Positions 4,917 through 29,184 of a stretch of DNA of 34,503 nucleotides are shown here, in pieces. The notes under the pieces are model-generated. The model searched no databases, was not told where the DNA came from, and was given only the letters and a program-made list of their open reading frames with translations. The translations under genes were made by a program, and so were the position numbers. The stretch comes from a virus, in UHGV virus genome UHGV-0378206; one strand, 5' to 3'. Position 1 is the first letter of the stretch; the number at the start of each line of letters is the position of its first letter.

Positions 4917-5115
4917 GTTTTTTCCTATTGTTAGATAACATCGATTTTCTTACCTAATTAGGCATGAGATATTAAATTGTAACATATTTAATTGATAGTG
5001 CTTTCTGGAATCAGATTTTTGAAAGTTTAAAATGTTTTTCAGTTCTATTATTGTAAATAATAAAAACGTATCCTTAACAGAACAGTATGGAATTTCTAAA
5101 AAATCTATAATCATA

Positions 5116-10639: not shown

Positions 10640-11671
10640 TTACATGTTATTCGACAAGTATATAAAGTTCAAAGGGTTTTTCGTTACTGCATCTTCCAGA
10701 TGGTCTGGAGAAAAATGGGCGTAAATCATCGTCATTTTTATATCGGCATGGCCCAAAATATCGCGCAGTACCAGTATGTTTCCGCCGTTCATCATGAAAT
10801 GGCTGGCGAATGTATGGCGTAGAACGTGGGTGCATTGTCCCTCTGGCAGTTCAATACCAGCTCGTTTTACTGCCCGTTCAAAGGCTTTTCTGCATGGGGT
10901 GAATAGCCTTCCTCTGTTTTTAGGGAGTTCGTTGTAAAGATCCTGAGATATTGGCACGGTACGGTTTTTCTTGCCCTTCGTCTTGGTATAAGTGATGCGG
11001 TATTTGGATAACTGATGGCCCTGCAGATTTTCTGCTTCACTCCACCGTGCGCCAGTAGCTAGGCATATTTTTGCAATCATTAGTAAGCTAGGGCTTTGAG
11101 ATTCAGCACATGCCGCCAACAGGCGCTTGATTTCGTCCGTGGAAAGAAAAGCCAGCTCACCTTCGGCAATTTTGAAGGTCGGAAGTCCTGCCAGCGGGTT
11201 TGGTGCTGACCAGTGTCCTAGTTTTTTTAATGTACCGAACACCGATGATAGATTGCGCTGTTCAAGGTTTACCGTGCGGGGCTTAACGGGCGACATAAGC
11301 GTGCCATCTTCATTTCGTATTTCACCTTTTAACCGTGCTTCGCGGTATTTCGTAAAGTCTCCGGCTGTCAGCTCAGAGGCGATGGGGTCGCCTAGACCAT
11401 TACAGATAATTCTAAGTTTCGCCATGAGGCGCTTGGGGTCTGCGAGTGTCTGACCATACAGGGAATACCAAAGCTCAATTAATTCTGATAGGCGTCGCCG
11501 ATCATCCTTTTCACCCAACCACGGTTTTTTATTCACTTCTTCCATTGTGAAGCTTTCAAACGCAATGGCTTCGCCTTTCGTGGCAAATTGCTTACGCACG
11601 CGCTTGCCATTGCGTCCATTGGGATAGCACTCACACAACCATTTTCCGTTCGGCTGTTTTCTGATGGTCAT
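10640..11671 (-). CDS. int: P2-type tyrosine integrase
   Basis: 'GRNGKR', 'RRLSEL', 'TGARWSEA', 'RTVPIS', 'HVLRHTFASHFMMNGG', 'LGH...MTMIYAHFSPDHLEDAV' match P2 Int signature blocks. Confidence 0.9.
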   Translation of the reverse strand: MTIRKQPNGKWLCECYPNGRNGKRVRKQFATKGEAIAFESFTMEEVNKKPWLGEKDDRRRLSELIELWYSLYGQTLADPKRLMAKLRIICNGLGDPIASELTAGDFTKYREARLKGEIRNEDGTLMSPVKPRTVNLEQRNLSSVFGTLKKLGHWSAPNPLAGLPTFKIAEGELAFLSTDEIKRLLAACAESQSPSLLMIAKICLATGARWSEAENLQGHQLSKYRITYTKTKGKKNRTVPISQDLYNELPKNRGRLFTPCRKAFERAVKRAGIELPEGQCTHVLRHTFASHFMMNGGNILVLRDILGHADIKMTMIYAHFSPDHLEDAVTKNPLNFIYLSNNM

Positions 11672-11672
11672 A

Positions 11673-12305
11673 TCAAAGGCTCTTAATGATTTTCAGTGCG
11701 CGGCCTACTACCTCAATGTCATCCAGATCGCACTCAAACGATGAATCATCCTGATGCACTACTAATTTGTTTCCCGGGAGTCGAGTCAATTTAACGATGC
11801 TTTTTATCCCGTCGATATCGACTAACCACATACCATTTACTGGTGGTGTTTGGTTGCGATCTATTAAATAAGAATCACCAGAAGTAGTCACCAGCAGTAG
11901 GTTGCTTGAGTCTGAGGGGAGTATGCTGCTATCAATGATTGCTTTTCCAGCATCGACCAATAAACCACCGTTGAGAGTCGCCTTGTCAATTTCAGGAGAT
12001 ACTAGTTCAGAAAGAGGTACAACCTTGCTGGAGTTCACGGAATTGATATTTTTTTTAGGTTCAATGTTTGGACCTGGATCCCCCTGTCCGGTGGTTAGCC
12101 ACAGTAAAGAAACTCCTGTTTCCAAGGCGCACTGAATCACCCACTCTGCAGGGAAACTATCTCTTAAGTATCTGTTTGCCATGGTGCTTTTTGATGCGCC
12201 TAAGTGATCGCAAAGTTGCTGTCTGGACTTGAAATCATAGGCTGCCATTAGTCTATGGATAGCCTCTCTTCCCCCTGTATTCTCTCCAACCTTTACCTGT
12301 ATCAT
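11673..12305 (-). CDS. cI: 186-type CI immunity repressor
   Basis: N-terminal HTH ('QCALETGVSLLWLTTGQG') and C-terminal 'WLVDIDGIKSIVKLTRLPGNKL...FECDLDDIEVVGR' resemble coliphage 186 CI; divergent from the cox/apl-like gene. Confidence 0.7.
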   Translation of the reverse strand: MIQVKVGENTGGREAIHRLMAAYDFKSRQQLCDHLGASKSTMANRYLRDSFPAEWVIQCALETGVSLLWLTTGQGDPGPNIEPKKNINSVNSSKVVPLSELVSPEIDKATLNGGLLVDAGKAIIDSSILPSDSSNLLLVTTSGDSYLIDRNQTPPVNGMWLVDIDGIKSIVKLTRLPGNKLVVHQDDSSFECDLDDIEVVGRALKIIKSL

Positions 12306-12317
12306 TTTTTAATCCTG

Positions 12318-12369
12318 TTGACGTATCAAATATTGGATCGTAGTATCTCGATGTATCAAATATTGAATC
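12318..12369 (+). promoter_or_regulatory. candidate early rightward promoter with two repeated operator-like sites
   Basis: -35 'ttgacg' (12318..12323), 17-nt spacer, -10 'tagtat' (12341..12346); 18-nt near-identical direct repeats 'gtatcaaatattggatcg' (12323..12340) and 'gtatcaaatattgaatca' (12352..12369), each with internal dyad symmetry. Confidence 0.4.
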
Positions 12370-12424
12370 AAGTAAAACGAGATAAAACGACGTAAACCAA
12401 ACCTTAATCGGGAGATACTGCACT

Positions 12425-12667
12425 ATGAGCACTGATATTTCAATTCGTGTACCAAAAGAGATGGCTACGCCTGCAGAGTTCGCGGAATGGGAAGGTATCT
12501 CCCGCGGCTCCGTGTATCAAAAAATTCACCATGGTCAGCTTGCTAAATACATGGTCAAGAAAGAAAAAAACAAAGGCCGCGTAAGCCTGCGTTATTTAAT
12601 GTACAAAACCGATCAGGTCCGTGAATCCCTCGGTCATTCCAACTTCCGCGTCATTGTTGGTAAGTAA
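12425..12667 (+). CDS. Cox/Apl-like small HTH regulator/excisionase (putative)
   Basis: 80-aa ORF first in the rightward early operon; HTH-like 'AEFAEWEGISRGSVYQKIHHGQL'; same position as P2 cox / 186 apl. Confidence 0.5.
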   Translation: MSTDISIRVPKEMATPAEFAEWEGISRGSVYQKIHHGQLAKYMVKKEKNKGRVSLRYLMYKTDQVRESLGHSNFRVIVGK

Positions 12668-15095: not shown

Positions 15096-16102
15096 ATGCT
15101 ATCGATCCGCGTTGCTTTGCCTCAGGCACAATTAACGTCATCACTACTTCTGGTGGCAAAGATAGTCTCGCTCAATGGCTAAGAGCCATTGAAAACGATG
15201 TTCCGCATATTTCTGTATTTGCCGATACGGGTCATGAACATCCACAGACAATAGAATATCTGGATTATCTGGAATCAAAGCTGGGCAAGATTATTCGCGT
15301 CAAAGCGGATTTCACACGCCAGATAGAAGGGAAACGTAAATTCATTGCGGAAAAGTGGCCCATTTCTCTCGTTGAGGAATGTGGTATGTCGACAGATGAG
15401 GCTGAGGAACGTATTTACCGGGCACTGGAAATCCTTAAACCAACCGGCGTTCCGTTTCTTGATTTGTGCATGTGGAAAGGTCGCTTCCCTTCAACAAAAG
15501 CTCGTTTCTGCACTTTTGAACTGAAACATGAACCAATACGTACACAGGTAATCGATCCAGCTCTGGATGAATACGATGAGGTAATAAGCTGGCAAGGAGT
15601 CCGGGGGCAGGAATCACCGGAACGTGCATTGTTGCCTGAGTGGGAGGACGATGCAGACAATACTCTGGGGCTGCATGTTTATCGTCCGATCCTTAATTGG
15701 CTGCATGAGGATGTGTTTGCTATTGCCAAACGTCATGGCATTAAGCCTAACCCCCTTTATATGCAGGGATGCAGTCGTGTCGGTTGTATGCCATGCATTC
15801 ATGCTCGCAAGTCAGAACTTGGAGAGATTTTCCAACGCTGGCCAGAAGAAATCCGCCGAGTGGCTGAGTGGGAAAGACTGGTTGCGGAATGTTCAAGACG
15901 TGGCAATTCAACGTTCTTTCAATCCACGCATGATCCGCGCCGTGCTGAAAAACGGATCGAAGTCATAACTGTTGATGCTTATGGCATTGAAACTTATCGG
16001 GACTGGGCCTTAACGACTCGGGGCGGTATGCAGTTTGACCTGCTGGCAGGCATGAATGATAAAGCGGTGTGCAGCAGTGTATATGCAGGAGTCTGTGAGT
16101 GA
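15092..16102 (+). CDS. PAPS-reductase-like (PP-loop ATP pyrophosphatase family) protein
   Basis: PP-loop 'TSGGKDS' near N-terminus; Cys cluster '[13 protein letters not shown]'; translationally coupled to dam and gene A. Confidence 0.7.
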
Positions 16103-18540
16103 CAGAGATCAGCACAGGCCGTCTTGCCGATCCATTTGTCAGTGTAACTTCCGGTAGCATTGAGAATTCTGCCGGGGGTTATTCGTGGAATTTACCTAAG
16201 AAAGCCATTAACCCTTATCTGGACCCGGCGGAAGTTGCGCCGGTTTCTGCGCTTTCAAACCTGATCACTCTGTACGCTACCGATAACGAGCAGGAACAAC
16301 TGCGCCGCGAGGCACTGAGTGATCAGGTCTGGGAGCGTTATTTCTTTAATGAATCCCGTGATCCTGTCCAGCGCGAAATGGAGCAGGATAAGCTCATTAG
16401 CCGGGCAAAGTTGGCGCATGAGCAGCAGCGTTTTAACCCGGACATGGTCATTCTGGCAGACGTCAGCGCCCAGCCCTCCCATATCAGCAAGCCGCTGATG
16501 CAACGTATTGAATACTTCAGCAGCCTGGGCAGGCCAAAGGCTTATTCCCGCTATTTACGTGAGACGATTAAGCCATGTCTGGAACGACTGGAGCATGTAC
16601 GCGACAGCCAGCTATCTGCATCTTTTCGTTTTATGGCAAGCCATGTAGGGCTGGACGGCCTGCTGATTCTGCCTGAAATGAGTCAGGATCAGGTGAAACG
16701 CCTGTCTACCCTTGTCGCTGCGCATATGAGTATGTGCCTTGATGCAGCTTGTGGTGATTTGTATGCCACCGATGACGTTAAGCCAGAAGAAATCCGCAAG
16801 ACATGGGAAAAGGTGGCAGCGGAAACCCTGCGTCTGGATGTCATCCCGCCTGCGTTTGAGCAACTCCGTCGGAAAAGAAACCGCCGTAAACCCGTGCCCT
16901 ATGAACTCATTCCGGGTTCGCTGGCGCGTATGTTGTGCGCCGACTGGTGGTACCGGAAATTATGGAAAATGCGTTGCGAATGGCGGGAAGAGCAGTTGCG
17001 TGCTGTCTGCCTGGTCAGCAAAAAAGCATCTCCCTATGTCAGCTATGAAGCCGTGATGCATAAACGTGAGCAGCGCCGCAAGTCACTGGAGTTTTTCCGT
17101 TCTCATGAACTGGTGAACGAAGAGGGCGACACGCTGGATATGGAAGACGTGGTAAACGCCAGCAGCAGCAACCCGGCGCACCGCCGCAATGAGATGATGG
17201 CCTGTGTTAAAGGTCTGGAGCTTATCGCGGAAATGCGCGGTGACTGCGCCGTTTTCTACACCATTACCTGTCCGTCACGTTTCCATTCTACGCTCAATAA
17301 CGGCAGACCAAACCCAACCTGGACAAATGCGACGGTAAGACAAAGCAGCGATTATCTGGTCGGCATGTTTGCTGCATTTCGTAAGGCGATGCACAAAGCC
17401 GGGTTGCGCTGGTATGGCGTGCGGGTGGCTGAGCCGCATCATGACGGTACAGTTCACTGGCACCTGTTGTGTTTCATGCGCAAAAAAGACCGCCGCGCCA
17501 TTACTGCATTGTTGCGTAAGTTTGCCATCCGTGAAGACCGCGAGGAACTGGGTAATAACACTGGTCCACGCTTTAAATCTGAGCTGATAAACCCGCGCAA
17601 AGGAACGCCGACAAGCTACATCGCGAAATACATCAGTAAGAACATTGACGGGCGTGGTCTGGCTGGCGAGATCAGCAAGGAAACGGGTAAATCCCTGCGT
17701 GATAACGCTGAATACGTTAATGCCTGGGCGTCTCTGCATCGTGTACAGCAATTCCGCTTCTTTGGTATTCCGGGACGTCAGGCTTACCGTGAACTTCGCT
17801 TGCTGGCTGGTCAGGCGGCAAGGCAACAAGGTGACAAAAAAGCAGGTGCGCCGGTACTGGATAACCCGCGTCTTGATGCCATTCTGGCTGCTGCTGATGC
17901 TGGTTGTTTTGCCACCTACATCATGAAGCAGGGCGGCGTACTGGTCCCCCGCAAATATCACCTCATCAGAACCGCTTATGAAATCAACGAAGAGCCAACC
18001 GCCTATGGCGATCACGGTATTCGTATTTATGGCATCTGGTCACCCATTGCAGAGGGCAAGATCTGCACTCATGCAGTGAAGTGGAAAATGGTTCGTAAGG
18101 CCGTTGACGTTCAGGAGGCGGCAGCCGACCAGGGCGCTTGCGCCCCTTGGACTCGTGGCAATAACTGTCCCCTTGCTGAAAATTTGAACCAACAGGAGAA
18201 AGATAAATCAGCTGATGGGGACCCCAGAACGGACATTACCAGCATGGATGACAAGGAGTTGCACGATTACCTGCACAGTATGAGCAAAAAAGAGCGCCGG
18301 GAACTGGCAGCAAGGTTACGCCTGGTGAAACCGAAACGGCGTAAAGACTACAAACAGCGAATTACAGACCATCAGCGACTGCAGCTCGTGTATGAGCTGA
18401 AGTCCAGAGGATTTGATGGCAGCGAGAAAGAGGTCGATTTACTCCTTCGCGGAGGCAGTATTCCGTCAGGAGCAGGCCTGCGTATCTTCTATCGGAACCA
18501 GCGTTTGCAGGAAGATGATCAGTGGCGGAACCTGTATTAA
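16099..18540 (+). CDS. A: replication initiation endonuclease (P2 gpA family, rolling-circle HUH)
   Basis: 813-aa ORF with '[13 protein letters not shown]' HUH-type motif and conserved Tyr-containing region; position and size match P2 A. Confidence 0.85.
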
Positions 18541-18632
18541 TTACGCGGGTTAACAATTCGTGCTCTTAATAATACCAGGCATATCAGGCTGATGAACGTA
18601 AAAAAACGTTTTACATCAGTAAGATTATTATA

Positions 18633-18652
18633 TACTGTAAATATAAACAGTG
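18633..18652. promoter_or_regulatory. LexA (SOS) box
   Basis: 'tactgtaaatataaacagtg' = CTGT-N8-ACAG with AT-rich spacer, 41 nt upstream of the 18694 start. Confidence 0.6.
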
Positions 18653-18693
18653 GTTATGCATACAGTATTGCGTGTGGTGTCATAGGAGGAAAG

Positions 18694-18882
18694 ATGCAGG
18701 ACTATTTTTTGGAGTCTTTGAAGCTCCAGCGCATTGATTTTTTTCTTAAGCTTGTAGCGGCTAGTGAGTGTAGTGATGAGGAGAAGGGGCTGGCTCTGCA
18801 GTGGGTTTCTGAATTGACTGATGAACTCATGGCAAAAATCAGAACCCACGAATACAACCGCTCAATGGATGTCATCAGCTGA
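18694..18882 (+). CDS. hypothetical protein; possible N-terminal part of a Tum-like antirepressor
   Basis: 62 aa from ATG 18694 (RBS 'aggagga'); follows the LexA box; overlaps the next ORF in a different frame. Confidence 0.4.
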   Translation: MQDYFLESLKLQRIDFFLKLVAASECSDEEKGLALQWVSELTDELMAKIRTHEYNRSMDVIS

Positions 18883-18892
18883 GGTGACTTTT

Positions 18893-19126
18893 ATGCGCAT
18901 TGAAATAATGATCGATAAAGAGCAGAAGATTAGCCAGTCTACCCTGGACGCCCTTGAATCCGAGCTTTACCGCAATCTGCGCCCCCTGTATCCCAAAACG
19001 GTAATTCGCATTCGCAAAGGTAGCTCTAACGGTGTGGAACTAACCGGACTGCAACTGGACGAAGAAAGAAAACAAGTGATGAAAATTATGCAGAAGGTGT
19101 GGGAAGACGACAGCTGGCTGCATTAA
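18893..19126 (+). CDS. DinI-like protein (possibly the DinI-like domain of a Tum-type antirepressor)
   Basis: 'MRIEIMIDKEQ...LDALESELYRNL...VIRIRKGS...KQVMKIMQKVWEDDSW' parallels E. coli DinI over its full length; RBS 'gaggtga'. Confidence 0.7.
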   Translation: MRIEIMIDKEQKISQSTLDALESELYRNLRPLYPKTVIRIRKGSSNGVELTGLQLDEERKQVMKIMQKVWEDDSWLH

Positions 19127-19260
19127 GAAACGTTGCTGGCGTCTGAACTTGCTTCTGGCGTCAGCAAGGTTGAACAACGAGCCCTTGCGAGGCGTTAGCT
19201 CTGTAGTGCATGTCTATGCTGCATGAGATCGCATGATCGTTTGAGGATCGTTTTTGCTAA

Positions 19261-19288
19261 GGCCCGCCAGAACTGGCGGGCTTTTGCG
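19261..19288 (+). terminator. rho-independent terminator
   Basis: 'ggcccgccag aa ctggcgggc' stem-loop followed by 'ttttgcg'. Confidence 0.65.
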
Positions 19289-19330
19289 TAGATCATGCAG
19301 GTGCATGAAAACCACTACATAAAGCGGGCA

Positions 19331-19349
19331 GGCGTGGCGGGGATACGAG
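19331..19349. other. candidate cos-like GC-rich motif (low confidence)
   Basis: 'ggcgtggcgggga' resembles the 5' part of the P2/186 cohesive-end sequence as I recall it (GGCG[A/T]GGCGGGGAAAGCA-); the 3' part diverges. Confidence 0.25.
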
Positions 19350-19439
19350 CGCGCGTTGCAAACCATGTCGATGCTGTTATCATTTGCAGCAAGTTTTCAA
19401 AGTGCTAAAGCATTCTTTAATTCCAAGGTAGGTATAGAT

Positions 19440-21380
19440 ATGATAGCCGGGTTGTTTATCCGTAACGTCAAAACATATCAAGGCATAAATTATATTCCTT
19501 TGACAGACGCTCCAAATTTTAGCGGTTTCTTAGGAAATAATGGGATAGGGAAAAGCTCAATACTTGAGGCATTGGATGTAATATTTAATGCTAAAGAGTG
19601 GAATTATAATACAGCTGTCAAAAAGAGCGGTATAGAAAAAACCAGCCCACATATTGTACCGGTTTTTATATTGGAGGAGGATTTTTTTGATTCTGAGACA
19701 CTCCCTTTTGCAAAAACGCTAGATGCTTTAGCTAGGGAGGTTAGCTTAGAGGATGCTACAAACTCACAAACAAAAACTATTCTTGAAAATTTTATAAGTC
19801 ATCGTGATAGACTTTTTGCACGAAATGATATGCAAGGGCAGTTAATTATTCCTATTGGACGCCTTCATAATAATAATATGTCATTATCTGTTTTAGCAGG
19901 TAGAAGTCTATCTACTATAATGGAAAAAGATATATTTGGTGCCGGATTCAAGTTAAGTGAAGGTATAGAGTTAGCTAAACATTTTCAAGTTTTATTTGAT
20001 TATATCACTGGTAAGTTAGAATATTTATATATACCAAAAGAGATTGATACTGAGGTTTTTACTAAGCTTGAGAGTATTGGAACTCAAGTATTGATGGGTG
20101 AATCGCTGCATGAAATTCTTGATAGAATAGTTGGTGAGTCAAAAATTGGAGAAATCAACAGAGAACTAAGCGGATTTCTTGAAGATATCTCAACGAAGCT
20201 AGTTAACTATACGTATAGAACGCCTTCGGATAGGCAAAAAAGAATTCAAAAAAAAGAAGTCTATAACTTAATTATACAAGCGTTTTTTAACGTCAGAAAA
20301 TTACATAAAACCCACAATGGCGAGCATTTTTTAGAAATTAGTAATTTGAGTTCGGGGGAAAAGCAGAAGGCTATTATTGATGTTGCGCATGCATTGCTGA
20401 CAAAGCATAGAAGTAATAGTGATAATTTAATCATAGCCATAGATGAGCCTGAGTCTTCATTGCACATGTCTGCTTGTTTTGAACAATTTCAAGCGTTATC
20501 AGAACTAAGTTTAGGATGTAGGCAACTATTGTTTTCCTCTCATTGGTATGGTTTTCTCCCCACCTTGGAAAAGGGAACTGTTACAATAATAACTAAAAAA
20601 AATAATGAGCATCTTTTTGATCTGATCAATTTAGCATCTTACCGGGAAGAAATAAAACAACTTGTTCGAGATAGTAGGGGAAAGTTACCATTTGATATTA
20701 GAATTAAAAGTATGAATGATTTTACTCAGTCATTATTATCTAGTGCAACAGGTGAGAAACCATATAATTGGTTGATTTGTGAGGGTTCATCGGAAAGAAT
20801 TTATCTTTCAGCATATTTTAAGGATTTGATAAAGAATCATAATCTTCGTATTGTACCTGTTGGGGGGGCGTCGGAAATTAAAAAAATATATAACTATCTC
20901 TCTGCCTGCTATAAGGATGTCGAAGGGGAGATTACCGGAAATATATATTTGTTAGCTGATACTGATAGCCAGTTGGTCAGATATGACGTCGGAACATATC
21001 AAAGATTACATTGTAAAAGATTTGTTTATGATTCGTCTAAAAACAGGGCGATCTTAGTTAAGATAGACACAAATCCGGTATCGCCTGCAACTGAGATAGA
21101 GGATGTTTTGAACGCAAAAATCTATTACCAGACCTTATTGTCATTTGCTGGTGATTACGATTATTTAAGTTTCATTAATAATATTGATGCTCCAAGTGAT
21201 AATCTGGAATCTTACTCAGCTCTTGATCTCAGAGTTAGTGAAAAAAATGCCATAAATAGATTTTTTGATGATGGAAATAATAAGTTTTTATTCGCAAAAA
21301 GATATGTTGAATTAATGACGGAAGAAAATAGTGTTCCAGAGTGGATTAGTGAGATTAGAGAGGTAATGACTTCAGCTTAG
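19440..21380 (+). CDS. ABC-type ATPase fused to Toprim-like nuclease domain (OLD-family-like; possibly fused PARIS AriA-AriB-like) at the P2 old/tin cargo position
   Basis: Walker A 'GNNGIGKSS', ABC signature-like 'LSSGEKQ', Walker B 'LIIAIDEPESSLH'; C-terminal 'LICEGSSER' and 'LLADTDS' fit Toprim E / DxD motifs; AT-rich; preferred start ATG 19440 (RBS 'aaggtagg'), ORF opens at 19356. Confidence 0.75.
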   Translation: MIAGLFIRNVKTYQGINYIPLTDAPNFSGFLGNNGIGKSSILEALDVIFNAKEWNYNTAVKKSGIEKTSPHIVPVFILEEDFFDSETLPFAKTLDALAREVSLEDATNSQTKTILENFISHRDRLFARNDMQGQLIIPIGRLHNNNMSLSVLAGRSLSTIMEKDIFGAGFKLSEGIELAKHFQVLFDYITGKLEYLYIPKEIDTEVFTKLESIGTQVLMGESLHEILDRIVGESKIGEINRELSGFLEDISTKLVNYTYRTPSDRQKRIQKKEVYNLIIQAFFNVRKLHKTHNGEHFLEISNLSSGEKQKAIIDVAHALLTKHRSNSDNLIIAIDEPESSLHMSACFEQFQALSELSLGCRQLLFSSHWYGFLPTLEKGTVTIITKKNNEHLFDLINLASYREEIKQLVRDSRGKLPFDIRIKSMNDFTQSLLSSATGEKPYNWLICEGSSERIYLSAYFKDLIKNHNLRIVPVGGASEIKKIYNYLSACYKDVEGEITGNIYLLADTDSQLVRYDVGTYQRLHCKRFVYDSSKNRAILVKIDTNPVSPATEIEDVLNAKIYYQTLLSFAGDYDYLSFINNIDAPSDNLESYSALDLRVSEKNAINRFFDDGNNKFLFAKRYVELMTEENSVPEWISEIREVMTSA

Positions 21381-28759: not shown

Positions 28760-29184
28760 ACCGGTTGCTGCTGGTTGTGCTGGCGTTATTACTGGCGGCG
28801 CTGGGCTGGCAGACGTGGCGGCTGGCTGATGCCAGCCAGACCATCAGCATGCAGGCAGATGTGCTTCGGAGCAAAAGCCAGGCACTGGCAAAGAGCAACA
28901 GCCAGCTTATCAGCCTGTCCATTCTGACAGAAACCAACAACCGGGAGCAGGCGCGACTCTATGCCGACGCAGAACAGACCAGCGCACTACTGAGACAACG
29001 ACAACACCGGATTGAGGAACTGAAACGTGAGAACGAGGATTTACGCCGCTGGGCTGATACTCCTTTGCCTGCTGACATTATCCGGCTGCGGGAACGTCCG
29101 GCACTCACCGGAGGTGCAGCTTACCGTCAGTGGTTGTCCGCGAGTGACGCCGTGTCGGCTGGGGCAGGCAGCGCCGCGCACTAA
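28756..29184 (+). CDS. lysB: LysB, Rz-like inner-membrane spanin
   Basis: N-terminal TM 'LLLVVLALLLAALGW', coiled-coil periplasmic region. Confidence 0.65.
   Translation: MNRLLLVVLALLLAALGWQTWRLADASQTISMQADVLRSKSQALAKSNSQLISLSILTETNNREQARLYADAEQTSALLRQRQHRIEELKRENEDLRRWADTPLPADIIRLRERPALTGGAAYRQWLSASDAVSAGAGSAAH

Follow-up and report, generated by a model that had tools for sequence, protein, structure and literature searches.

In phage 186 the Tum protein is reported to bind the CI repressor, to prevent it from binding to its operators, and to be both required and sufficient for SOS induction (Shearwin et al. 1998, as cited in PMC3121763), and the notes of the 186 sequence record state that Tum "inhibits CI DNA binding" and that a GTG-initiated DinI-like product "modulates SOS induction". 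Lemire et al. 2011 described Tum as resembling an antirepressor fused to DinI, and pointed out that the tum region is split in two in Fels-2 and PSP3 (PMC3121763). For PSP3 the same article relays a personal communication in Bunny et al. 2002, according to which the upstream gene has antirepressor activity, and in the PSP3 record tumB is annotated as dinI-like, while the note for tumA reads "similar to 5' end 186 tum; UV induction of prophage". In the Gifsy-1/2/3 prophages the dinI-gfoA/gftA operon is repressed by LexA and encodes a small antirepressor and a DinI homologue, and here the repressor is not cleaved (PMC3121763).

The stretch of DNA analyzed here (34,503 nt, referred to as the window) is a Fels-2/186-type (P2/186-like, Peduoviridae) prophage. 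The region in question, summarized with its surroundings in Table 1, is with high probability the SOS operon of this prophage, in which a LexA-repressed antirepressor gene is followed by a separate DinI-like gene.

Table 1 Features of the predicted SOS operon and of the associated phage genes in the window.
Feature	Position	Strand	Basis or remark
-35 hexamer TTTACA of the SOS promoter	18610-18615	+	read from the sequence
Predicted SOS (LexA) box 1, TACTGTAAATATAAACAGTG; its first six bases are the -10 hexamer TACTGT	18633-18652	+	
Predicted SOS box 2, CAGTGGTTATGCATACAGTA; 5 nt in common with box 1	18648-18667	+	pattern match
Shine-Dalgarno sequence AGGAGG of the 62-aa gene	18684-18689	+	read from the sequence
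tumA-like gene, 62 aa, predicted antirepressor; stop codon TGA at 18880-18882	18694-18882	+	homology to the N-terminal part of Tum
Shine-Dalgarno sequence GAGGTG of the DinI-like gene; overlaps the TGA of the upstream gene	18881-18886	+	read from the sequence
tumB/DinI-like gene, 77 aa	18893-19126	+	Pfam DinI
Predicted intrinsic terminator, end of the two-gene operon	19259-19288	+	folding energy
186-type CI immunity repressor, presumed target of the antirepressor	11673-12305	-	Pfam domains
Integrase	10640-11671		
gpA-type replicase gene	16099-18540		precedes the SOS module

The putative SOS promoter and the predicted extent of the operon

The original prediction placed a LexA box a short distance upstream of a 62-aa open reading frame, and this holds: the box TACTGTAAATATAAACAGTG lies 41 nt before the ATG at position 18694, and no other site in the 34.5-kb window deviates from the palindromic LexA consensus TACTGTATATATATACAGTA at three or fewer positions, three mismatches being the cut-off of the scan (shuffles 0/100). 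A LexA box was present at the equivalent place in all of 43 related loci, including those of 186, PSP3 and Fels-2; the CTGT-N8-ACAG core was perfect in 33 of them and contained one mismatch in the other 10.

The predicted box overlaps a putative promoter located directly 5' of the 62-aa gene. This promoter is made up of TTTACA, a spacing of 17 nt and TACTGT, and its layout matches that of the annotated p95 promoter of 186; at the -35 position TTT(A/C)AC is kept in nearly all related loci. A simple promoter scan left the SOS promoter unflagged because the -10 hexamer fits TATAAT at only three of the six positions. An alignment of the upstream regions further showed that GGAGG(G/A)AA followed by ATG is conserved. 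At the other end the operon would be closed by the terminator listed in Table 1, where an 11-bp GC-rich stem is followed by UUUU (-24.6 kcal/mol, z-score -5.1, equalled by 0 of 200 shuffles). A search of Rfam with the region 18400-19500 gave no credible match.

The junction between the two genes

It is clear that the 77-aa reading frame encodes a DinI-like protein, as the original prediction had it. It matched the Pfam family DinI (PF06183) with an E-value of 6.6e-23 and a score of 81.3 bits (cut-off 24.2) over the whole length of the model (positions 1-63 of 63), and it matched the structure of E. coli DinI (1GHH) over residues 1-75 with an E-value of 2.7e-6. The protein is identical to Fels-2 STM2726.1 (77/77, 100%) and shares 78% of its residues with PSP3 TumB. 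With residues 71-145 of 186 Tum the identity is 41% (E 3e-24), and this last alignment starts exactly at the GTG-initiated "truncated Tum" annotated in the 186 record. When scored with the NCBIfam equivalog for the chromosomal DinI the protein reached 42.7 against a cut-off of 111, which shows that we are dealing with a paralogue and not with dinI itself. The protein would be an accessory modulator that probably acts on RecA filaments, and we propose that the switch can operate without it. In the Gifsy prophages deletion of the dinI homologues was without clear effect (PMC3121763).

Upstream of it, the 62-aa reading frame at 18694-18882 proved to be real, and the overlap between the two frames that had been claimed did not. 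Between the TGA of the upstream gene (18880-18882) and the ATG of the DinI-like gene (18893) lies a 10-nt gap, with the Shine-Dalgarno sequence of the DinI-like gene at the junction. An overlap arises only when a mechanical 101-aa reading frame is started at an upstream ATG at 18821, and this extension is not conserved in the relatives.

Three explanations had been offered for the split appearance of the tum-like region, namely a genuine two-protein arrangement, programmed frameshifting, or a frameshift mutation that inactivates induction. For a decision between them we compared 40 loci, taken from different species of Enterobacterales. In nearly all of them the upstream gene has a length of 62 aa, and its dN/dS over 37 loci was 0.093, the two control frames giving 1.3 and 2.0, while the DinI-like gene gave 0.101 (19 loci) against 1.3 and 3.0 in its control frames; values of about 0.1 indicate strong purifying selection on both genes. 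Every one of 20 junctions consists of a stop codon, a spacer of 9-13 nt with a G-rich Shine-Dalgarno sequence, and an ATG, and the relative frame of the second gene is 0 in 5 junctions, +1 in 8 and +2 in 7. The stop codon itself varies between TGA, TAA and TAG, with a tandem TAG TGA in one locus. Following the 62-aa gene, the DinI-like gene is absent in approximately 18 of the 40 loci and is truncated or frameshifted in two others. Stand-alone genes of the Tum N-terminal type were also present in the phages ENT90 and vB_YenM_06.16-2.

Since one 146-aa reading frame holds both parts in 186 and its close relatives, and since the DinI frame in the window is +1 relative to the upstream reading frame, one might suspect that a frameshift or nonsense mutation has split a single tum gene and left a prophage that DNA damage no longer induces. 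We regard this as extremely improbable. The same layout of 62-aa and 77-aa genes is found in Fels-2 and in many phages of Klebsiella, Salmonella and E. coli, and the 760-bp locus is carried by 1145 of 5426 complete E. coli genomes (about a fifth). Both genes have kept their low dN/dS across genera, and the DinI-like gene has its own Shine-Dalgarno sequence and an ATG exactly where DinI, PSP3 TumB and the GTG-initiated product of 186 start. Furthermore, Fels-2 is lethal in lexA-null Salmonella, as stated in the title of Bunny et al. 2002 (cited in PMC3121763), which argues that the module is active.

A second way of connecting the two frames would be a programmed +1 frameshift at AGC-TGA-G, which would yield a Tum-like fusion of approximately 143 aa alongside the two individual proteins. 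Both in the window and in Fels-2, slippage by +1 at the stop codon does read ...AEVTF-MRIEI..., which is formally of Tum length and colinear with 186 Tum. Three different relative frames and varied stop codons nevertheless leave no single recoding route that is conserved, the canonical slippery heptamer is absent from 18821-18882, and roughly 18 of the 40 loci have no DinI-like gene at all. A hairpin at 18871-18888 that could have assisted is neither significant (z-score -1.6) nor conserved. Such recoding therefore appears very unlikely. The same hairpin, which comprises the stop codon and the Shine-Dalgarno sequence, was likewise discarded as an element for translational coupling.

Collectively, these data identify two separate and intact genes that are predicted to be translated separately, because the reading frames are adjacent, have their own ribosome-binding sites, are under purifying selection, and occur in all three relative frames among the relatives. 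Of the three explanations offered it is thus the two-protein arrangement that stands. The outcome that had been named as speaking against the original prediction applies in one half only: the two reading frames are independently conserved as separate genes, but they are not unrelated to Tum. We conclude that one and the same module exists in two versions, fused in 186 and split in the window. In 186 a free DinI-like product is also made, starting at a GTG codon behind an internal Shine-Dalgarno sequence, so that the outputs of the fused and the split form are similar.

Kinship of the 62-residue protein to Tum and its presumed target

The kinship to Tum that had been proposed for the upstream reading frame was upheld for the N-terminal part of Tum, and it was profiles alone that revealed it, a BLASTP comparison of the 62-aa protein with 186 Tum having given no match. 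The 62-aa protein matched phrog_698 (E 3.6e-38), phrog_8554 (2.4e-8) and phrog_1993 (2.2e-3), the last of which is defined by PSP3 TumA. Residues 1-70 of 186 Tum matched the same three families (phrog_1993 at 2e-23, phrog_8554 at 3e-12, phrog_698 at 6.7e-6), and residues 7-44 aligned to positions 7-44 of the phrog_698 profile. When an alignment of 33 diverse members of the 62-aa family, obtained from a profile search of 1.8 billion representative proteins, was compared with 186 Tum by hhalign, the two aligned without gaps, 5-46 on 5-46, with a probability of 95% and an E-value of 3.5e-8. The homology extends over approximately 42 residues with 19% identity.

The profile search itself returned 86 clusters, nearly all of them stand-alone proteins of 50-75 aa, and no fused Tum of approximately 146 aa above the library-wide threshold, so that a link between the families could not be drawn from this search alone. 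Where the two genes of a locus are in one frame, a tblastn search with the whole of Tum was colinear across the stop codon. The direct similarity to PSP3 TumA, among the split forms the only one with a reported activity, was weak in hhalign (E 0.004, probability 8.5%), and the closest described counterpart, Fels-2 STM2728, is identical at 61 of 62 positions (98.4%). AlphaFold2 predicted a two-helix hairpin (pLDDT 89); a sequence search of the PDB came back empty, and Foldseek with this model matched only generic helical hairpins, every E-value being at least 0.39.

Pfam, NCBIfam and PADLOC held no family for the 62-aa protein. In the databases it is named "hypothetical protein" (PGAP), or "Levan regulatory protein" in some UniRef entries, and the pair of genes in the E. 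coli loci is annotated by PGAP as "hypothetical protein" and "DinI-like family protein".

We infer from the above that the 62-aa protein would be an antirepressor and that the CI protein of the window would be its target. This CI protein contains the Pfam domains Phage_CI_repr and Phage_CI_C, and Pfam detected no Peptidase_S24 (self-cleavage) domain in it. It is 32% identical to 186 CI (E 2e-34) and 58% identical to Fels-2 CI, and the gene families of an Apl/Cox-like protein and of CII, typical of a 186-type immunity region, are present as well. A CI protein without a self-cleavage domain requires an antirepressor for SOS induction, as in the established mechanism of 186, and the proposed sequence of events is as follows. 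A sigma-70 promoter lying beneath two overlapping LexA boxes would drive transcription of both cistrons as far as the terminator. Upon DNA damage LexA would be inactivated, the operon transcribed and the 62-aa protein made; this protein would bind the non-cleavable 186-type CI and block its binding to the operators, which would free the lytic promoter and induce the prophage. The second cistron would supply a free DinI-like protein, an optional modulator equivalent to PSP3 TumB or to the internally initiated short Tum of 186.

In a comparison of the window with Fels-2, E. coli Ecol_542 and Escherichia sp. MOD1-EC7003, identical TumA-like and DinI-like proteins were found next to CI proteins with a mutual identity of only 44-58%, so that specific recognition of each of these CI proteins by the same TumA-like protein has to be assumed. 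Across 34 loci with the 62-aa type of gene, CI is best conserved in its helix-turn-helix domain, and 33 of the 34 carry the motif S(K/Q)ST(M/L)ANR..RxxFPx(D/E)W; the exception is a locus from Pantoea stewartii (L027) with a 186-like CI motif. All four phages with the 186-type Tum N-terminus (186, BIS20, EtG and ENT90) have the 186-type CI motif SSLxNRYTRGxxSYD, and PSP3 and vB_YenM_06.16-2 each combine an antirepressor type of their own with a CI variant of their own. This suggests that, among the related phages sampled, the type of antirepressor follows the DNA-binding domain of CI, and such a dependence would be in keeping with an action against operator binding.

One could still imagine that the 62-aa protein is SOS-induced without being an antirepressor, that it modulates RecA or DinI or acts on host physiology, and that the prophage is induced by another route. 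The missing Pfam and NCBIfam family and the database names given above would agree with this, and so would the weak direct link to PSP3 TumA and the fact that identical copies adjoin quite different CI proteins. Yet the 62-aa protein is homologous to the very part of Tum that only the full-length antirepressor possesses, and the 186 record assigns inhibition of CI to full-length Tum and "modulation" alone to the DinI-like short forms. The 62-aa gene is moreover the constant member of the LexA-controlled unit, in which DinI is optional, the repressor lacks the means of self-cleavage and needs an antirepressor, and the type of antirepressor tracks the helix-turn-helix type of CI in the 33 of 34 loci and the four of four phages mentioned above. 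A role of this other kind is therefore improbable in our opinion, and we retain the interpretation of the 62-aa protein as a putative antirepressor.

The predicted double SOS box and comparison with known switches

Overlapping the box discussed above is a second predicted SOS box (18648-18667) that had been missed in the original prediction. The two 20-bp boxes are offset by 15 nt and have CAGTG in common, and together they conform to the pattern CTGT-N9-CAGTGG-N8-ACAG, which occurs once in the window against an expectation of 0.01. The same pattern is present in ColE1 at 5063-5093, which we take to be the operator/promoter region of the colicin E1 gene (cea). The PLSDB gene table for ColE1 shows no gene at that position. 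Ebina and co-workers are said to have found in 1983 that LexA protects both boxes at the colicin E1 promoter. The window (18633-18667) and the ColE1 stretch are identical at 28 of 35 positions, with the boxes in the same register. Box 2 is the weaker of the pair, with six mismatches against five in box 2 of ColE1, and box 2 of Fels-2 is identical to that of ColE1. ACAGTA at 18662-18667 was at first discounted as part of a second box, its left half being GTGG, and the comparison with ColE1 reversed that assessment.

A second box in the same +15 register was found in 25 of 42 loci with the 62-aa type of gene. A single SOS box is present in the loci from Pantoea, Erwinia and Tatumella and in 186, PSP3, BIS20, EtG and vB_YenM_06.16-2. 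The operator at 18633-18667 is thus a colicin-type pair of overlapping predicted SOS boxes, placed here before a putative prophage antirepressor gene, whereas in ColE1 it stands before the colicin gene. By analogy with the colicin operator, the antirepressor gene would be held under very tight repression and would be released only upon a strong depletion of LexA. A literature search, which did not include the main Fels-2 paper, found no paper tying overlapping SOS boxes to prophage antirepressors.

Combining the double operator with the diversity of the neighboring CI proteins leads to a tentative idea, which we consider possible but rather doubtful. The 62-aa antirepressor could be a generalist directed at the conserved helix-turn-helix face of CI and could cross-induce heteroimmune P2-like prophages whose CI proteins are 44-58% identical, with its release delayed to late or severe SOS by the colicin-style double LexA operator, a feature present here and absent in 186 and PSP3. 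The double operator, and the combination of one antirepressor with several immunity types, may also matter for the response of co-resident P2-like prophages, and of the cargo genes they carry, to SOS-triggering antibiotics. The value of the present analysis lies mainly in annotation, as an antirepressor gene without a Pfam or NCBIfam family and with the labels given above will be missed by automated pipelines, although it is the gene that would decide whether the prophage responds to DNA damage.

With respect to the described systems, the Gifsy-1/2/3 operons differ from the present one in having the reversed gene order (dinI first), in belonging to lambdoid phages and in being directed at repressors of an unrelated family. 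Phage 186 shares with the window the layout of promoter and LexA box, with the -10 hexamer TACTGT inside the box, the position of the module in the genome and the CI/Apl/CII switch; it differs in the fused 146-aa reading frame, the single SOS box, and orf97 as the next gene in the same operon. PSP3 has a LexA box, a gene of approximately 60 aa and a separate gene for a 77-aa DinI-like protein, likewise after the replicase gene, and differs from the window in that its TumA is of another sequence type (phrog_1993), its two genes share one frame with a 3-nt gap, its SOS box is single and its CI is longer (286 aa). The closest relative is Fels-2, where STM2728 and STM2726.1 have the same 10-nt spacer, the same +1 frame and the same dual-box layout with an identical box 1. 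The module of Fels-2 is also found after a gpA-like replicase gene, and its Apl is 100% identical, in contrast to CI with only 58% identity. The gene following the DinI-like gene differs too, encoding a 243-aa hypothetical protein in Fels-2 and an OLD-family ATPase/TOPRIM protein in the window. The locus is accordingly a near-identical copy of the described, already known Fels-2/186-type induction switch, and the points that deserve mention are an unannotated family of putative antirepressors, a colicin-like double operator, and a pattern of one antirepressor with many repressors.

Antirepressor, repressor and DinI-like gene

The Apl protein encoded in the window was 100% identical to that of Fels-2 (L046), and the CI protein, whose gene adjoins apl and is divergently transcribed, shared only 58% identity with its Fels-2 counterpart, so that the immunity region is mosaic. 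Three types of CI, 44-58% identical to one another, were found beside identical TumA-like and DinI-like proteins (in the window, where CI is encoded at 11673-12305 and the other two at 18694-19126, and in the related loci L006, L046 and L047). A motif in the helix-turn-helix domain of CI was tracked by the type of antirepressor, with one exception in Pantoea stewartii (L027). The 62-aa gene remained intact in loci where the DinI-like gene is truncated (L020, 8201-8326), frameshifted (L044, 8199-8428) or missing (about 18 of the 40 loci); DinI is the dispensable member of the pair.

Features of the window and their coordinates.
Feature	Coordinates	Strand	Description
Immunity region	11673-12667		mosaic
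SOS box 2 (predicted)	18648-18667		5-nt overlap with SOS box 1 (18633-18652)
62-aa gene	18694-18882	+	TumA-like
Imperfect hairpin	19133-19167		long; TTGCTGGCGTC...GGCGTCAGCAA; directly 3' of the DinI-like stop codon; no U-tract
OLD-family gene	19356/19437-21380	+	single gene, ATPase and TOPRIM; Pfam AAA_15, OLD-like_TOPRIM
CTGT-N8-ACAG match	28915-28930		CTGTCCATTCTGACAG; GC-rich spacer; within late genes

Annotation and distant members of the 62-aa family

Neither Pfam nor NCBIfam holds a model for the 62-aa family, which PGAP labels “hypothetical protein” and some UniRef entries “Levan regulatory protein”. Gene callers often start the ORF at the upstream ATG at 18592, thereby spanning its own promoter and giving versions of 84-109 aa. 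Many distant members recovered in the profile search (P0146, P0156, P0162, P0174, P0178, P0182, P0184, P0187 and P0193) share a glycine-rich C-terminal tail, ...KNPQxGGxxGGxLQ, which is absent from the 62-aa protein of the window and from 186 Tum. In the same search, eight repeats of P0170, a 1205-aa NACHT/HEAT-repeat-like protein, matched the family profile (AIDALVKLIADSNVDD...), a resemblance that seems to stem from composition or helical repeats rather than from homology.

The region downstream of the DinI-like gene

The hairpin following the DinI-like gene might serve to stabilise the RNA or might be a partial terminator like t95a of 186. Folding of the entire 19127-19260 stretch gave a z-score of -1.7, which is not significant. 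Between the terminator of the SOS operon and the portal gene lies the OLD-family gene, the product of which gave weak PADLOC matches to AriA, Old and AbiLi. The cargo at this position differs among relatives: E. coli Ecol_542 carries DUF262 and a HEPN-like nuclease, and vB_EcoM-813R9 a Hypoth_Ymh protein. The site looks like a variable slot for anti-phage defence.

The predicted dual SOS operator

Besides the operator, the window contains a single match to CTGT-N8-ACAG, which is probably due to chance because of its GC-rich spacer and its position inside the late genes. SOS boxes 1 and 2 together form a predicted colicin-type dual operator, and the segment containing both is identical in 28 of 35 positions to the ColE1 operator. 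The second box was found in 25 of 42 related loci; 186 and PSP3, unlike the window, lack it.
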